DNA of 62,964 bases, the filler included, from Collodictyon triciliatum (lineage: Eukaryota): assembly GCA_043381765.1 (NCBI GenBank). It is 13 parts of 13 records of this genome, joined end to end, with 100 filler letters (N's around TTAATTAATTAA, not from the genome) between each part and the next. Parts side by side here need not be neighbours in the genome. Positions count along the whole stretch, not along the records: positions 51,678 to 56,359 come from JBHJMP010005850.1; positions 56,460 to 61,138 come from JBHJMP010005851.1; 11 more parts are not named here. One strand, given 5' to 3'. The position numbers were made by a program, and so were the translations under genes. Every line of letters starts with the position of its first letter. Positions within the stretch are counted from its first letter, which is position 1. The notes beneath the pieces are model-generated. The model worked only from the letters and a program-made list of their open reading frames with translations, had not been told where the DNA came from and did not search any database. This document shows, one piece after another, positions 8,501 through 61,329 of this stretch.

Positions 8501-8600
8501 NNNNNNNNNNNNNNNNNNNNNNNNNNNNNNNNNNNNNNNNNNNNTTAATTAATTAANNNNNNNNNNNNNNNNNNNNNNNNNNNNNNNNNNNNNNNNNNNN
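8501..8600. other. Artificial scaffold linker (44N-TTAATTAATTAA-44N); identical linkers start at 13296, 18076, 22867, 27657, 32444, 37230, 42014, 46796, 51578, 56360 and 61139
   Basis: Identical 100-nt structure repeated 12 times. The core has stop codons in all six frames, and genes are truncated at these points. Confidence 0.95.
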
Positions 8601-12765: not shown

Positions 12766-13429
12766 CGCAATTTGGATCCTGAACACATTTTAATTAATTA
12801 GGCGATTGCGGGCCTTTTTTTTTTTTGTATATTTATTTTCTTTCTTTTAATACGTGAAGGCTGGTAGAACTGATTGTTTTGATACATGATTTCATTAATT
12901 GCATCGACCCTACAAGTATAATTCTTGAACGCATTTTGTCATCTTATTTTTTCATCAGGAACAGTCAAGATTTTGATTATTTTTTTACTCTTACTGAAAT
13001 AATTACTTTTCACATAGGTTGAGGTATGTAATTGCGTTTTAAAAATGGATGGAAATTGCGGAATTTTCCATTCAGGATGACATTTGCGATTGCCTGGCAT
13101 ATTTTCTTGATGCATAAGAGTTATCGTTATCACATTTTAACATTGTTATGTATATCCTTTTCTATTTTTGTGAATAGATCATTGTATGTATGTATGTATG
13201 TATGTATGTATGTATGTATGTATGTATGTATGTATGTATGTATGTATGTATGTATGTATGTATGTATGTATGTATGTATGTATGTATGTATGTATNNNNN
13301 NNNNNNNNNNNNNNNNNNNNNNNNNNNNNNNNNNNNNNNTTAATTAATTAANNNNNNNNNNNNNNNNNNNNNNNNNNNNNNNNNNNNNNNNNNNNCATTT
13401 TATTATCATTATCATCATCATTATTATTA

Positions 13430-34301: not shown

Positions 34302-34875
34302 GCGATTTTCTGTGGCCTTCTTGTTTATACTCTTTTTTTCCCTTTTGTTTGCGCTTCTTAGTAGAATAATGAATTGGTTCGTACTTCGGCAGATATGCTG
34401 GAGCGAGACTTTATCGCAATATTCCTATTGTCCTCCTACTGGATATCTACTATGAGGTTTATGATGAATATCACTCGGTTTTTCCTCGGGTTTTTTTTTT
34501 GTTTGCTGCCGTTCAATTTTCTGTTGAAGCAGTCATTTTCTTTTATTTTGAATTTTTGAACTTTTAAATTCAAATGGACTAATTACGCTATCACAAGCTA
34601 TGATATACGGTACTATATTTACGGCCATAAATGTTCCGTGTGGCGAATCGCACACCAAAGGCCGGAAGTAAGGCGCTTTTTCTTTGCTTTTTCTTTTTTT
34701 TATCTTTCCTGTTATTCTTGGATAGCCTGTTTTTTTAACAGCTCGTGGCAGAAAAATGGAAAGAAAGTAGAAGTATAAAGCAAAATGAGATTACTTTAAG
34801 GAAAAGAGTGGATGTTCATCGTGGGCCGAATAACTAAAGCATCTCATGGTAAAATCTACCGGAATCTCGGAGTAA

Positions 34876-37050
34876 TCAGGCCTTGTGGAAAGCAACTTCC
34901 AAATGCAAATATAGTGGCTTCACGCTTAGTAGACGCAGAGATTTCCTCTTCGGATCAGTTGGTTTTTGATATCTGAAGAGCAAGTTCAAAAAGCATAAAA
35001 AAAGAGGTGAGCACGGAGAAATTTGTATGTATTTTGGAGTCATCATTTCGGATGGTAAGCCATATTATGTATATTTGTTTTTTGTTTTGTTTCATATCTG
35101 CTATATTTGCTCAAGTGCTTCCTCTCTATTTGGATTGAGTGTTTTGATGACATTCGTTATCTTCGATTCTTCCTCTTTTTTTTTTTTTGCTGATACAAGA
35201 AACTCACATTTCAAGAACAATCGGTCCAGGTTTGACTTCATCCATCTCCATAAAGGCCCAGGCCTTTGTGCTGATTTTCTGCTTCTTGGGCTTAAAATGC
35301 TTGAACTCAAAGAAAATGGCGCTGGCTGTGAAAAAAATGAAGGTCAAAAACAAAAAACAAAAAACAAAAAACAAAAAACAAAAAACAAAAAACAAAAAAC
35401 AAAAAACAAAAAACAAAAAACAATAAAGTAATTAAATACAAATAACCACTGAACACCTTAGCAAACCAAATTTTATTTAATTTCGACCTTGTAACAAACA
35501 TAGTCGAATGCACCATCTGAACAAGGGACGATAAAAAAATTAAAACAAAAATTAGAAGATATACCTGATGGAATCATAGACAGTGCTGTTTGGATGTTGA
35601 CATTGACCCCGTAATTGACACAAAGCTCATTCTTTCGATTGGACACCGGCGTGTCTTGCGAAGTCTCAACAAGCGAGCTGTTGGAATCTGAAAAAAGCAG
35701 AATGTACATAATAATTTGATCAAGAAACTGCTTTTTTTTTTCAAAAAAAAAAAGTAATGTACTTGTAATTGCCCTTTCAATGTTGGTACCAAAAAAATCA
35801 ATCCAGACAAGAAAACGTCATCTCCAAAGAAAAAACAAACGCAGTTATATTNNNNNNNNNNNNNNNNNNNNNNNNNNNNNNNNNNNNNNNNNNNNNNNNN
35901 NNNNNNNNNNNNNNNNNNNNNNNNNNNNNNNNNNNNNNNNNNNNNNNNNNNNNNNNNNNNNNNNNNNNNNNNNNNNNNNNNNNNNNNNNNNNNNNNNNNN
36001 NNNNNNNNNNNNNNNNNNNNNNNNNNNNNNNNNNNNNNNNNNNNNNNNNNNNNNNNNNNNNNNNNNNNNNNNNNNNNNNNNNNNNNNNNNNNNNNNNNNN
36101 NNNNNNNNNNNNNNNNNNNNNNNNNNNNNNNNNNNNNNNNNNNNNNNNNNNNNNNNNNNNNNNNNNNNNNNNNNNNNNNNNNNNNNNNNNNNNNNNNNNN
36201 NNNNNNNNNNNNNNNNNNNNNNNNNNNNNNNNNNNNNNNNNNNNNNNNNNNNNNNNNNNNNNNNNNNNNNNNNNNNNNNNNNNNNNNNNNNNNNNNNNNN
36301 NNNNNNNNNNNNNNNNNNNNNNNNNNNNNNNNNNNNNNNNNNNNNNNNNNNNNNNNNNNNNNNNNNNNNNNNNNNNNNNNNNNNNNNNNNNNNNNNNNNN
36401 NNNNNTTTTACTTACGTGGCGGAATCTGCTTCATTTGTTCAATTGAAATACCCTTAAATCCAGGGTCTTGGATAGTCTTTGCCCGAATATTAAGTGCGAG
36501 AATAAGCTTCGACAAAACATCCTGGATAATAAGTAAGATGAATCGTGACATTTTATGTTCCTCTGTCATCTGTTTCTGCGTGTGTCTGGAAAGAATGAAT
36601 TATATGGAGAGAGAGAGAGAGAAAGAGAATTATAGAAACCCGCTCTTGTGGTGATAATGTTGTCTTTTCGACCCCTTTGCTTATTTGTGACGCGAGGCTA
36701 AATAAAAAAAAAAGGAACGAAATAAGACACAATAAATAAATAAAATTATCAAGAATAACCTTAACATGATGGTTGAACAGCATCACCTCTTGTAGCCATC
36801 CGCAGCTTCGACCGTTTGACCCCACGTGTCACTTTCAAGCGCTGTTCCATACATTTTCTCCCATCTGATTAAGTGAAACCATAAATAAATAAAAACAATA
36901 ATAAAAAAACAATAATAAAAAAACAATAATATAAAACAAAAAAAAAACACCAGATAAAAGAGTCAAACATAAGCTACGCCTGTGAAGTAAAAAAGAGATT
37001 CGCTTGATGAGAATAAACCTTGCTCGAAGCTTTTCTTTTTCTCCAGACAT
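34876..37050 (-). CDS. AIDA: Axin interactor, dorsalization-associated protein (AIDA; C2-domain), with internal N gap
   Basis: RWEKMYGTALESDTWGQTVEAADGY...QDTPVSNRK...AIFFEFKHFKPKKQKISTKAWAFMEMDEVKPGPIVLE...YQKPTDPKRKSLRLLSVKPLYLHL; closely follows the AIDA signature. Confidence 0.92.
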
Positions 37051-54593: not shown

Positions 54594-56849
54594 CTTTGAA
54601 TCGAGTAAAGGGAAAAAATAATTGATTATTATTTGTTGGTGTTTCCAAATTTGATATATATTAAAGTTACTCATTCAACAGTAAAATTTATTTTATTCTC
54701 CCAACAAATCAAAAGCAATATTCTTACCGATTCCACTGATGCTTTTGTTGCAGATGCTATGCAATCCGATCAGCTGTTCACTGTAATATTTTTAATCTTA
54801 GATATAATTAGTCAAAGAAATCAAATTTGGAGTTGAAAAGAGTAAAATCATAAAAAAAAAAAATATTGCGATAGTAAATATCAACAACAGTAAATAGATT
54901 ACCCGCTTTTTGACCATGCAGAATGAATCCTCCTCTTACTACAGCGATACATTACTCGAGTGAACAATTAATGTTTCTGGTGAGATCAATATGATTTATT
55001 TTAAAAGAATAGCCTTTCATGTTATGAAGCTGATATAAAAAAACTCTGATTCATGCGATAGGGACAAGTTGAGGTTAAAAATTTTTTTATTACTGACCAT
55101 ACGCCAAATGAACAGTATCAGTCTCAGGGGTGCGGTCATTAAAGATGAACTTTTCCTCTCTTTTTGGCCACAGCTCAATCATTTTCTCTACCCTATAGGC
55201 AATATGGATCATTTGGGTATGGTTTACACATACATAGATAAAAATAAAAGCAAATATCGAGATATATTTTGATACGGCCCGTGATCGATTAAAGTCAACA
55301 ATTATAGTAAATAGAATTTCAACAATAATTGATCATTAGCCCTTATTCGTCAGCAATCCCCCAGGCGCAATAAATTATGAGGAGCTTAGTGTGTCATCCT
55401 GATAGTAAGCTTCCAGGCATGTTATATTAACGGCAGTATCACTTAATGGAAAAATAAAAATTAAGAGGGAAAATAATTAAAATATATAGATGAGAAATTA
55501 AAAAAAAAACTGCCAATATAAGAAACCCGTGAAAAGGCTGAAGTTAGAACCAAATAACCAACAGAGCAAAACAACCAAACTGAAAGCAACGATCTAACTA
55601 GAAGAGATATACTTAAAGCCTGCATCTGTGGAAAAGACCAGCGAAGTGAGCATGATGTGGGCAGCAGAGCAACAAAAGACCCAGTCATTGTCACACCCTT
55701 GGAAAGTGTCTTAAACTGCACGAGATGGGATCAGAGTCTATTATATACTATGAATGATAGGATAACACATAGGCTATAGCATTGTTGATAAGAAATATAA
55801 AAAAAATAGAACGATTGGTGGTTCAGACAACGTAGATGCGTGACCAACAATCCTCTGCAACAGGATGCTCCGTGGCTATAATAGTCCTACCCCCACTTTT
55901 TTTTCCTTTATTCGGTTCAAAGTAGTCCTAGCCTCACTTGACTTGCGAATACGTATAATAATAAGGGGCCCTAACAAACTAGTACATGACATTAGAAAAG
56001 TTGAGTTTAGAGTTATTTAGATATGTAAATGAATTTTCTGTATAGTCTCGAGCTTGGGTTGGTAAGTAACAACATAACCCAGGGATTATACAAGGCAATA
56101 ACAAAGCCCATCATATCCACTTTTGCTGAAAGCAATCATTCGCTGCCCTTGTTTGTATCTTTAATAATTGCTATCATGTACTAGCGTTGGATAGACTACT
56201 CCACTCTCGATCAAGTCTTTCGGTTTTCTGACAAAGGTAAAAGACCAGCTTAGGTTACACATTTTTGTTTGTTTGTTTGTTTGTTTGTTTGTTTGTTTGT
56301 TTGTTTGTTTGTTTGTTTGTTTGTTTGTTTGTTTGTTTGTTTGTTTGTTTGTTTGTTTGNNNNNNNNNNNNNNNNNNNNNNNNNNNNNNNNNNNNNNNNN
56401 NNNTTAATTAATTAANNNNNNNNNNNNNNNNNNNNNNNNNNNNNNNNNNNNNNNNNNNNTATGTTTTTATGTTTTTATGTTTTTATGTTTTTATGTTTTT
56501 ATGTTTTTATGTTTTTATGTTTTTATGTTTTTATGTTTTTATGTTTTTATGTTTTTTAATTGAGATACGATCGAAAAGCACGCAATGTGACACGCTGATC
56601 TTGCGATGATCCTTGCACGAAGCGACGCTGACCACAACAAAACCCTCACGCGAGCACTAAAACCCTGGTGCTATGAAATCCACATAAGAAAATTTTGGCC
56701 TAACATCGCACGCGCCGAGCGACAGAATGGCATTCCATCTGTATCCATTTGGATGAAGTCGAGGGAAGAAGGAGCCTCATTCTGAATCTGGAGCAGCCAT
56801 ATATATTCGCGGTTTTTGGCTGGGTGCAAGCACGCAACACGAAACATTG

Positions 56850-56985
56850 TTATGAGTAAAAATTCCTTCGAGGGGGAATATACTATCGAAAGATTGGTAA
56901 ACCTGGTGCGCTAGAATCCAAGGTCTCACCACTTTTTTCACAAAGGTTGTGTAGTGGTGAAGACTGCCAGGAAAGACCCAACAGC
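56850..56985 (-). ncRNA. Candidate Fanzor omegaRNA scaffold
   Basis: Directly 3' of the Fanzor ORF. Nested stems on +: gtctcaccact(56923-33)/agtggtgaagac(56953-64), inner cacaa/ttgtg, outer cctgg(56902-06)/ccagg(56967-71). A second stem ctttcga/tcgaagg reads on the minus strand. Confidence 0.55.
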
Positions 56986-58892
56986 CTATTTTTTTTTAGA
57001 GAAAGGTGTATGCATTTTTTGAAGGATTGAAAGAACTTTCTTGGGTATTTTTTTAGCGCTGTTAAAGTCCCTTGTCAAGAATACACTTTGTTTGCTTTCT
57101 GAGCGATTACATTCTTTACATGTGTGACATATATACACCTTTTTTGTATTTCCTTTCAATTCCATATTTTCCAGTTCTTTTTCGCAGTTACAACACACCT
57201 TGGAGGTTCTAAATTCATCTACGCTAACTGTTTCAAAACATTTGGATAGTATTTTTCGTAATCCTTTTCTGATTGTTGGCATAAAATATTTCATCTGAGA
57301 GTTTCTGCTCAAGTTTCCATTCGCCAATACAACATCCTTGCCAAATGTCTTTTCGGTTCAGTCCATAAACAACTGTTCACTTCTTTTTGTATTAACATAC
57401 TTTCTCCATCTCATCTTTCGAAAAGTTACTTGTTCATAAAATCTGGAAAACCCTATCTGGTATCTTGATTTCATAGATACATATTTTCTAAACTTTTCAT
57501 AATCGACCATGCATGAATTATGTTTGCTCAGTCCTGTCTCTAAATCGATTAAAGATAGTCTTGATGTCTCAAACTGCTGATTCTCTTCAAAATTCATGTG
57601 ACAAAAAGAAATAGCACTTTGTAAACCTGTTTCCATGCATATCCCTGAACAATTGTAATTTTTTTCTCGCGCAAGAGTATTTTGTGATTTTTAAGAGGTT
57701 TGCTATCATATCTTCTTTGGTGTGCTGTGTAACGTAATTTCTTGCCTGTCTCATCCACCATGTAAACAAAATAAAACTTACCTGCGTCCACTCCATCTAT
57801 TTTCTTTTGCCGCTAATAAATATAACAGGTCTTCGGAAAGTTCATCAATATAGACATATTGGGTTTTTTTTTTCATTATATCTGAATTTTGAATTTGAAA
57901 TACCTTTCTTTTCAAACAATAATGACACCACCAAGCCGTCTGTTTGTATCATGTATTTAAAATTGTAGTATCTTTGATGAAATACCCTCTTCTTCATTTC
58001 AAAAAAAAAATCATCCCATAGGTTCTCTTCGCATTCTGATATATTCTCGAGTAATAATCTTTTTCCAGTTGTTACTAATAGATCTATCAAAGATGCGGTA
58101 TCTAGAGTAATATGACATGGTATATTGGTAGTTCTTATAGAGATTCGTTGATACTTTTTTGGCTCCAATGTCCTCAAAAATGCGATTCGTGTAAATCAGA
58201 TGTGGAATGTACTTCGGATTGACTTTGGCGTCATATTCGATACCTTTTACAATATCGCTTGGAATGATATGATGCAAATGCAACATAGCCCATTCTTTAT
58301 ATTTTTCCGGTATTTCGAGTTTCTTGGAGATGGCTTTTTTTTAATTTTCGTAACTCTGCCTTTTTAATAGCTTACGTAATATTCTCATCTTTAGGAACTG
58401 TTTGATTTATGTAGCGCAATAACCCCTTTAAAAAATGCTCCTTAATGTTATTATGATAAGCTGTTAACATTTGCTTCGCCAAGTACGGTAATACATGAGA
58501 CAGTCCAACCAACGGAAAGTGTTCTTATCGGGACAAAAGGAATCGAAAGTCATTGAGATAAAAAGTCATCATGTCGATACTTATATCTGGTTTTTTTTAA
58601 ATCTTCCTGGTCTATCTTATGAAACGATTCCCACTGTCTTTAAAGCGTACAAAAAACAAAAAACAAAAAAAAAACATTTGATTGGTTGTTGGGAGTTGTG
58701 ATTTCAATATGTAACATCTTACAAACAGATAAGTGTCGGTAATGTAAAGTTATGACACAATAAAACCGTATCGTTGATTTCGTCATAGTCATCCGGATTC
58801 TTTGCAATCAACTTTAGAGATGTTTACACATTTCGATAGTCTGGTTTTACAGACTTTATATTCTCAGACCCAAGATGTTTTCTTTTCTTCAT
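56986..58892 (-). pseudogene. Degenerate Fanzor1 (eukaryotic TnpB-derived RNA-guided endonuclease), intronless, with multiple frameshifts and stops
   Basis: Fragments in order: MKKRK..TSLKLI..EINDTV..TYLFVRCYIL..YLAKQMLTAYHNNIKEHFLKGLLRYIN..IPCHITLDTASLIDL..MIQTDGLVVSLLF..GVDAGKFYFVYMVD (RuvC-I)..RKMRWRKY..MKYFMPTIRKGLRK..VDEFRTSKVCCNC (RuvC-II, Zn)..CKEC..TRDFNSA (RuvC-III). Confidence 0.88.
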
Positions 58893-58938
58893 CTGAACGT
58901 CTTTGTTTTACGTTTTCCTTTAGAAAACTACCAAGTTT

Positions 58939-58946
58939 TCAATTTT
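58939..58946 (-). promoter_or_regulatory. AAAATTGA motif (Mimiviridae early-promoter consensus) about 46 nt upstream of the Fanzor ATG
   Basis: + strand tcaatttt at 58939-58946. The motif also occurs by chance elsewhere in this AT-rich window. Confidence 0.35.
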
Positions 58947-61329
58947 AATAAAGCTTTAGTCAATTATCCAATTTAAAAAAACTGCGTAAAATCAATTCAG
59001 GTAAAATTAAGCATCTACCGAGACCCTCAAAATATGCACGTTGCGACAAACAAGCACATTAACTTTTTTTTTAGAAGTAATTTGAGACAAAACGCTGAGA
59101 GCCAATTCGGCGAGTTCGAAAGGATGGCCGTATAGAAACTGCGATTGAAAGTCAACATATCGGTCCCAAACAACATGATTACCGCCGCAAGTGTGGATAG
59201 AATGCTTTTTTGAAATGCATGTTTGGTGGCAGGTTTATAGGGGGGATTCTGTCTGGGCCAAGGCAAGGGCTTGTTTGTCATTTTTGAATTTTAATGGGAT
59301 AGTAATATTACATAATAGAAAATAAAATATAAATCAATTACAGGAATAGAATGAAATTATGAAGTATTTTAACCTTATTATATATACTAATTATATTATT
59401 CAGGTTGCTTCTTGGATTTATCAAAGCTCTTGCTTCCGTCAATCCAGATTAAATTCGATGATTGCCTGTGCAATAAATTGCTCTATATATGGGTACACTT
59501 TCGTTGTATTAAAAGTGGTGTGCTTGGAAGGGATAAAACCAAATTCGTCACAACCTTTGCGATGAAATTTAACCATTTACAGGCTGAATGTGACTGAAGA
59601 AAAAAAAGAAAAATAGAAAAAGAAAAAATAAATGAATCAGAGTAACTAATGCTGAGCGCTATAACCATAATTATCTTACTGCCCGTGAGTTGATGGCTTG
59701 AGCTTGAATCATATAAGCCCTTTCTTCAGTAGCCTCTTGGTCTCTTGCTCCCCATGGGTCGGTGGCTTGGGCTCGATTGGTTTTTTATTCCCCATTAATT
59801 TTAGTTTTAGTATAAGTTTTAGTGTTAGTATTAGTATTATTGTTATTATTATTATTGTTATTATTGTTATTATTGTTATTATTGTTATTATTGTTATTAT
59901 TATTATTATTATTCGTTATTATTATTCGTTATTATTATTCGTTATTATTATATGTTATTATTATTGTTATCATTATTCGTTTCAAAGAGCTCGCTCCGTC
60001 TTTTTATTAGCTTGTTGGCTCACGGGTCGGTGGCAGCTGGCGTCATGATCGTTGGTGTGTCTCTGTGCGTAACCTGTGTTGTAAGGGATGTGCTAAAGTG
60101 ACCTTTTCGATCTCTGCGTTGGCTGCGTCGGCCTTCTCGTTTTGCGTACGATTAGTAGGCATCCCACGGGGCAGGGCTGTGGCGTCGGTCTCCTGGTAGG
60201 CGGTCTCGTCCTTCTTGGGATCCCTCTCACCGATCGCTTGCTTGTTTTTTTTTTTTTTCGGCTTCAGAATGTGACGGGTTGAGAGAAGAAAAGAAAGCTA
60301 GTGTGATAATATTATTTTATGAAATATGTGCTCTCTTCTCCCTTGGTGTTTATTATTTCTCAGCAAATGAGACTTTTTCTTAGTTATAGTGTTCTTTCGT
60401 TGTTCCTCTCAACACCATCTCTCTCAGTGCGATCATCACATTTAGTCACATTGCGAGGTATAGAATAGAATAACCTTCGGGAAGGTTGTCTCACAGCCAC
60501 AAACAAACAAACAAACAAACAAACAAATAAATTTATCATACCATATATGAAAATCTATTCTGGATGGTATCATTATCTTACAAAATTTTAACAATTTAAT
60601 CATTCGTAACCGTATATTGCTCTCATTTAATATCTATGAATCCCTTTTTATACACTCAATGTTCATAGACAACGATGTTGCCAGCAACACAGTCGTGGTA
60701 TGGCGTCGGTCTGACACCCCGTGAGATAACTGGCAGGCACCACATCCGCTGAGAACCTTCCTTTTACGTCCACACCGAGGCCGAGGGTGATTAGAATTGC
60801 GCTGGGAGCCAGACAAAAGCTTGGACAAAAACCTACACACGAACCCGCACGGAAAGCGCGTGACCGTCCCAAAACATTACAGCACCATACGAAAGTCCAA
60901 TGCGCTTCTTGCCCGCGATGTGAGGAGGCTGTCCTAGAAATGCACAAACCACGTAGCTGCTTCCTCGTTTGAAACGAAGGGAACGTGCGCAGATGAAAAT
61001 GATAATGACAACATAGTGAAAGAGGATGCATTGTCTTAATAAAAAAAAGAATAAAAGAATAAAAGAATAAAAGAATAAAAGAATAAAAGAATAAAAGAAT
61101 AAAAGAATAAAAGAATAAAAGAATAAAAGAATAAAAGANNNNNNNNNNNNNNNNNNNNNNNNNNNNNNNNNNNNNNNNNNNNTTAATTAATTAANNNNNN
61201 NNNNNNNNNNNNNNNNNNNNNNNNNNNNNNNNNNNNNNAAAAAATTTTTTAAAGAAAAATTTTTTAAAAAAAACCTTTAAAAAAACCGGATTAAAAAAAA
61301 AAAAAAAAAAAAAAAAGTGGAAAGCTCAC

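Follow-up and report, generated by a model that had tools for sequence, protein, structure and literature searches.

The minus strand of contig JBHJMP010005851.1 from Collodictyon triciliatum carries a decayed Fanzor1 gene and, directly 3' of it, a block of hairpins. The contig (56460-61138) has microsatellites at both ends and is part of the window, the whole stretch of 62,964 nucleotides of assembly GCA_043381765.1 that was analysed. The window is a chain of separate contigs of about 4.68 kb whose size slowly falls, with microsatellite ends on most of them. They are joined by a linker with stops in six frames, N44-TTAATTAATTAA-N44, found at 12 sites about 4.78 kb apart (8501-8600, 13296-13395 and so on to 56360-56459 and 61139-61238), and sequences on either side of a linker are therefore not genomic neighbours. 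The features of the locus, with depth referring to contigs from four sequencing runs, are as follows.

58744-59400, minus strand: upstream continuation of the repeat family, comprising 5' non-coding sequence and the missing N-terminus, with cover in all four runs
56986-58743, minus strand: decayed Fanzor1 gene, from tblastn with the relative P0002, phmmer and PDB matches
56964-56923, minus strand: stem-loop 1, GTCTTCACCACT (56964-56953) pairing with AGTGGTGAGAC (56933-56923), one bulged T
56923-56897, minus strand: stem-loop 2 and then TTTAC, with CCTTGG (56923-56918) pairing with CCAGG, from folds
56892-56865, minus strand: stem-loop 3, CTTTCGA (56892-56886) pairing with TCGAAGG (56871-56865) in 7 pairs, one of them G-U, from sequence and folds
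56864-56850, minus strand: tail, AATTTTTACTCATAA, with a candidate element end at ...CTCA followed by TA (56852-56851)
56849-56833, minus strand: flank proposed as guide, CAATGTTTCGTGTTGCG, with zero depth in all four runs

The adjoining open reading frame had been described in the initial annotation as a decayed Fanzor, an identification now backed by phmmer, by Fanzor1 matches in the PDB and by tblastn with an intact relative. Residues 52-602 of this relative, P0002 (634 aa, a full-length match to SpuFz1 at E 9e-37), align to 58743-57004 on the minus strand in five pieces, in frames 0, 2, 1, 2 and 0, giving four frame changes in the window gene. A TGA stands in frame at 57360-57358, the last frame closes at a TAG at 56988-56986, and the first ~51 residues of P0002 are without an aligned counterpart. 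The four frame changes and the in-frame TGA mean that the reading frame is no longer intact. Motifs are still legible in its translations, namely IDGVDAGK (RuvC-I, ~57800), VDEFRTSKVCCNCE, a second CxxC and TRDFNSA, and the gene combines homology to characterised Fanzor1 with the RuvC D/E/D and zinc-finger motifs of a Fanzor1 nuclease. A stretch of ~92 nt just past the RuvC-I region (57571-57662, minus strand) is without counterpart in P0002; P0001, a fragment of the same family, has an insertion of ~33 residues in the same place.

A 216-residue C-terminal read-through of the window gene, with X at the TGA, retrieved 1553 related proteins at E≤1e-3 in a phmmer search. The closest matches are fragments of the same family as the window gene (57-76% identity), while the closest intact protein is 48% identical. 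Among the proteins examined, no intact family member above 55% identity was found: each was a fragment, and in several of them defects of frame or motif can be seen. The only solved structures matched by the window fragment are those of Fanzor1, from Parasitella (6e-11), Spizellomyces (1e-4) and Guillardia (8e-4), and Pfam gave just a sub-threshold Cas12f1-like TNB match. Judged from its sequence, the window reading frame is a dead Fanzor1.

Reading the minus strand past this gene recovers, each in its place, all of the stems that had been named there earlier. The arms of stem-loop 1, GTCT(T)CACCACT and AGTGGTGAGAC, enclose an A6 run and an inner stem of CACAA (56951-56947) and TTGTG (56943-56939) around CCT. 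Folded as 46 nt, stem-loop 1 reaches -16.6 kcal/mol, a stability found in 43 of 11,898 46-nt windows over the whole stretch (0.36%); within its own contig no other 46-nt segment folds more stably. The stability of the block as a whole is modest and unexceptional: the 134-nt fold, at -36.0 kcal/mol, is matched by 7.0% of 1,730 windows of the same size, and a 171-nt fold (z = -2.0) is equalled in 9 of 200 shuffles. An outer stem had also been proposed, nesting the first hairpin between CCTGG (56971-56967) and CCAGG (56906-56902). These segments are able to pair, but they do so in one near-optimal fold only, and the minimum-energy fold of the 134 nt pairs CCAGG with CCTTGG instead. A search of 56460-59400 against Rfam at E≤10 gave six weak matches, none within the block.

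The repeat family, its right edge and the flank

Contigs assembled from four runs were placed on 56460-59400 at ≥80% likeness (n=478; 52, 14, 22 and 390 per run). All four runs are represented by assembled contigs and the RNA label of one, X4, is a guess, so run depths carry no information on expression. No sequencing run is on record as RNA, and word shares with the runs are at most 0.14. Contig cover over the four runs spans the sequence from the 56856-56954 bin through 59400, and the Fanzor1 copy belongs to a many-copy family. Depth in the 56856-56954 bin is 2.97, 2.45, 0 and 65.5 across the four runs, and 4.23, 3.3, 0.68 and 158.8 in the neighbouring bin (56955-57053). In every run it is zero in both 56658-56756 and 56757-56855, and it is at most 0.4 in 56559-56657. 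Since cover ends within 56856-56954 or at the lower border of this bin and is nil in 56658-56855, the right edge of the family lies ~100 nt or less from 56852. This is compatible with the element end that the initial annotation had put near 56852; the edge is resolved to a 99-nt bin. Among the 24 loose contig ends listed, of 142, none falls at ~56856 with a common consensus. One X1 contig goes on below 56929 as a diverged homologue, with 25 of 30 positions identical over 56899-56928.

In the upstream direction, family cover reaches at least 650 nt beyond the recognisable reading frame, and the element is therefore at least 2.5 kb long. Loose contig ends at 59370 prove to be homologous sequence, with no boundary there. 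Neither a left end nor an inverted repeat partner was found in the contig, and the terminal 17 nt (GGAATTTTTACTCATAA, 56866-56850, minus strand) have no inverted match at ≤3 mismatches. A weak inverted likeness links 59494-59563 (plus strand) to 56953-56885 (minus strand), TACAC..AAAAGTGGTG.G.CTTGGA. It is within background, being reached by 16 of 300 shuffles and ranking 10th-13th (tied) among 750 tiles, two self tiles included, and could be a degenerate left subterminal repeat.

The dinucleotide TA is present at 56852-56851. By analogy with the intact relatives and with TA-flanked Fanzor1 of the SPu-1/mariner type, as described in excerpts of PMC3627910, it may represent a target-site duplication. 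The flank CAATGTTTCGTGTTGCG beyond it (56849-56833, minus strand) is unique DNA outside the repeat family, with zero depth in the four runs, and would be the part taken up as guide. The search for other matches to this proposed guide that had been envisaged earlier produced a single one, at 34629 in a contig unrelated to this one; it has 3 mismatches and is at chance level.

No second copy of the element was found inside the window by blastn; the window being a chain of unrelated contigs, this absence says little. Searches elsewhere for further copies were equally empty. The block's reading frames used as protein queries gave no matches, nor did the C-terminal piece when searched by words among longer proteins, and a DNA pattern from the hairpin-2 region had 0 matches in the genome-contig and viral-contig collections. 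The window protein piece had 65 pattern matches in genome contigs, none of them a relative.

The 3' block of intact relatives

A metagenome scan with a six-row alignment yielded 80 loci (L001-L080) and a scan of viral contigs 13 more (L081-L093), from freshwater and marine metagenomes and giant-virus contigs; several of the 13 viral loci lie on the latter. The 80 metagenome loci have 40-48% amino acid identity over the C-terminal 190 residues, with reading frames that are uninterrupted and ~590-710 aa long in most of them, and the best short segment of L093 reaches 52%. The motif GGCGTTTTAAAT-N5-AAAGGTGTAAA is present in 71 of the 80, 16-168 nt downstream of the stop, and on its far side the loci share no similarity. 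Read by eye, the upstream part of the 3' block is present in 13/13 giant-virus loci and a recognisable end motif in 12/13, L092 ending differently. An inverted copy of the last 16 nt of the end motif (≤4 mismatches) was found within 1.5 kb upstream of the reading frame in 32 of the 71 loci, and by count of rows 22 of these 32 have one at ≤2 mismatches. These inverted end copies indicate compact inverted-repeat elements. The inverted repeats are ~30 nt long, TTTACACC...GGTGTAAA. Element ends in the relatives read TA-CACC...GGTG-TA, in which the TAs are probably duplications, resembling those of TA-flanked SPu-1/mariner-type Fanzor1 in the excerpted account of PMC3627910.

Up to the right inverted repeat, the relatives have a conserved 3' block of about 113-163 nt. 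It begins with (C)GTCTT-TCAC, a variable stem-loop, GAAAAAGT and AAGAC-CATC, and continues with a hairpin, TTGATTTTAC, a U-rich linker, a GC hairpin and a tail. Over 47 distinct sequences of the first stem-loop, pairing holds in 97.8% of cells, compared with 81.0% after shuffling, and 9 of its 11 pairs have changes on both sides. Its covariation score is 0.447, against 0.157 when shuffled (0 of 500 shuffles reach the observed value) and at most 0.138 when slid. Adding hairpin 2 brings six extra pairs (helices 3 and 4) that are never broken, five of them invariant and one changed on both sides. The position homologous to that of the window hairpins in intact relatives is occupied by a conserved, covarying block that ends at the element end, which supports the reading of the initial annotation. 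By analogy with the layouts described in excerpts of PMC10432273 and PMC11423790, the relatives' 3' block has the published arrangement of an omegaRNA.

Compared by eye, the window reads GTCTT-CAC ... AAAAAAGT-GGTG-AGAC-C, then a hairpin with TTTAC, a hairpin and a 15-nt tail. It shares with the relatives the motif GTCTT-CAC...AAAAAGT...AGAC-C and the order of modules (stem-loop, hairpin and TTTAC, hairpin, tail). The first stem-loop of the relatives (GTCTT-TCAC-(stem-loop)-GAAAAAGT-AAGAC) has its candidate homologue in stem-loop 1, and where the window has stem-loop 2 a hairpin and then TTGATTTTAC are seen in the relatives. The window block, 56964-56853, is 112 nt long against ~113-163 nt in the relatives, slightly under the shortest of them, and the relatives' 3' half and terminal repeat motif are absent from the window.

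Three covariance models were built from the relatives only, with rough calibration, and searched with filters off against both strands of the whole window; R2 and R3 were also searched locally against 401 nt (56700-57100).

R1, full block, 140 positions: 14 matches in the whole window at E≤10, none at the site
R2, first stem-loop, 49 positions: match at 56929-56962, 10.5 bits, window E 1.6, 7th of 25
R3, stem-loop 1, hairpin 2 and TTGATTTTAC, 81 positions: 20 matches in the whole window at E≤10, none at the site

The R2 match at 56929-56962 is the only one in its own contig and comes top in the local 401 nt (E 0.01), where the top match of R3 runs end to end over 56896-56963 (9.2 bits, E 0.066). 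Locally, then, nothing matches the RNA of the relatives better than this site, yet it scores no better than the window background. The models mis-register the inner stem because the extra GGTG of the window lengthens the helix. The best R1 match lies in another contig, at 36665-36779 (minus strand; 19.3 bits, E 0.025). It is AT-rich, has no Fanzor reading frame or remnant beside it and is probably due to chance.

In the commonest group of relatives, the final ~18 codons of the gene (...SFTSS..EEKVRPS*) contain the first stem-loop. The earlier placement of the block just after the reading frame holds in that it is directly 3' and on the same strand; the relatives' homologous hairpin, in contrast, sits inside the gene, and for this reason the TAG at 56988-56986 may end the frame prematurely. 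Past this TAG the window encodes VFTTT in the frame of the gene and KKVVRP one frame over. Since the shared motif is coding in the relatives, the likeness may be partly at the level of protein. Taken together, the comparison suggests homology between the window block and that of the relatives, short of establishing it.

Readings of the block

We consider that 56964-56853 on the minus strand probably represents the right end of a decayed copy of a Fanzor1 transposon, the part that encodes its omegaRNA. Its location is that of an omegaRNA, starting 22 nt past the TAG on the strand of the gene and running to the right edge of the family. As first proposed, the omegaRNA and right-end reading is right about the kind of element and its place, and the boundary is compatible with it; its conjectural part comprises the RNA, the guide start and activity. 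We infer that the hairpins form the omegaRNA scaffold, with an end at 56853/56851 and a guide start at ~56850. In an active element, the transcript would start within the final codons of the gene, span two or three stem-loops up to the element end, and take in a further 15-20 nt or so of flanking DNA. The scaffold would be bound by Fanzor1, chiefly at its first stem-loop, and the flank-derived 3' part would direct cleavage of matching DNA beside a TAM, for example at the empty site. For the window copy, we infer every functional step of this mechanism.

Alternatively, the block may be decayed C-terminal coding sequence together with subterminal transposon DNA, its likeness to the relatives stemming from the protein tail and its hairpins being incidental or serving as DNA sites for a transposase. 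The position of the relatives' first stem-loop inside the last ~18 codons, the resemblance of VFTTT and KKVVRP in the window to SFTSS...EKVRPS in the relatives, and the weak scores of the RNA models would all be accommodated by such an origin. Coding constraint alone, however, does not predict the compensatory pairs of the relatives (9/11), and stem-loop 1 has the most stable fold of its contig. Moreover, overlap between omegaRNA and coding sequence is normal in Fanzor1 systems according to excerpts of PMC10432273, and the two readings are mutually compatible. We regard a coding and subterminal origin in place of an omegaRNA as unlikely.

The omegaRNA reading would also have to be modified if the 3' end of this copy were truncated or rearranged, such that the real scaffold of the family continued outside the window sequence and CAATG... 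were not the guide position. This we think rather improbable. None of the 24 listed loose ends (of 142) falls at ~56856 with a common consensus, and published Fanzor1 scaffolds vary widely past the first stem-loop in the excerpted text of PMC11423790, against which must be set a boundary resolved to 56856-56954 only, a block slightly shorter than that of the shortest relative, the ~50-60 nt more that relatives have after TTGATTTTAC, and the presence of a similar GAATTTTTAC in the window tail.

That the hairpins are chance structures in ordinary AT-rich DNA, unconnected with the element, is very unlikely: 7% of 134-nt windows fold equally well and equal-scoring R2 and R3 background matches occur elsewhere in the window, but family contigs cover all of 56955-57053 and part of 56856-56954, the first hairpin is in the top 0.36%, and its position, strand and motif agree with those of the relatives.

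Returning to the omegaRNA-coding right end, its gene is dead and no intact partner came to light, which makes a relic the likeliest status of the RNA. We give little credence to the idea that this dead copy still yields a working omegaRNA, loaded in trans by an intact Fanzor1 paralogue. If it were true, decayed copies, like the ORF-less 'ghost' copies of SPu-1, would each retain a guide specific to their flank and go on taking part in homing without having a gene themselves. The copy in the window is best read as an ordinary relic belonging to a known system. If confirmed, it would be a further Fanzor1 family whose scaffold has several stems, and a test case for whether guides still come from decayed copies. 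Of more use is the large intact clade that emerged alongside. With a covarying first stem-loop that lies in coding sequence, inverted repeats of ~30 nt and sharp ends, this clade provides many natural scaffold variants to compare with SpuFz1.

Comparison with known Fanzor1 systems

One of the closest known systems is SpuFz1, from the SPu-1 element of Spizellomyces punctatus. Its scaffold of 75 nt extends from the stop to the right inverted repeat and is followed by a 14-15-nt guide, according to excerpts of PMC10432273. SPu-1 has TA flanks and occurs as many full, partial and ORF-less copies (excerpts of PMC10432273 and PMC3627910). The window element is like SpuFz1/SPu-1 in its single Fanzor1 reading frame, its many copies and, putatively, a guide taken from the flank. 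It differs from SpuFz1 in that its reading frame is broken and its candidate scaffold measures ~112-134 nt against 75 nt, and from SPu-1 in that it is known from sequence alone, with neither an inverted-repeat partner nor a left end found. Identity between the SpuFz1 protein and the window fragment is low (E 1e-4).

The arrangement of the block also resembles that of the GtFz1 omegaRNA of Guillardia theta. As described in excerpts of PMC10432273 and PMC11423790, this RNA has a multi-stem scaffold, with a first stem-loop and three more, and a 5' end that overlaps the C-terminal codons, by 17 codons of the gene in PMC10432273. This likeness is one of layout, and at the protein level GtFz1 matches the window fragment at E 8e-4 only. 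Across Fanzor1 scaffolds in general, the excerpts of PMC11423790 describe a conserved first stem-loop and a widely variable remainder.

The closest intact relatives are those of the metagenome and giant-virus clade. Unlike the window copy, their genes are mostly intact and intron-less, their last ~30 nt (GGCGTTTTAAAT..AAAGGTGTAAA, the right inverted repeat) are without a window counterpart, and models built from the clade score the window weakly. What the clade shares with the window copy is a structured block at the 3' end of the reading frame that runs to the end of the element.
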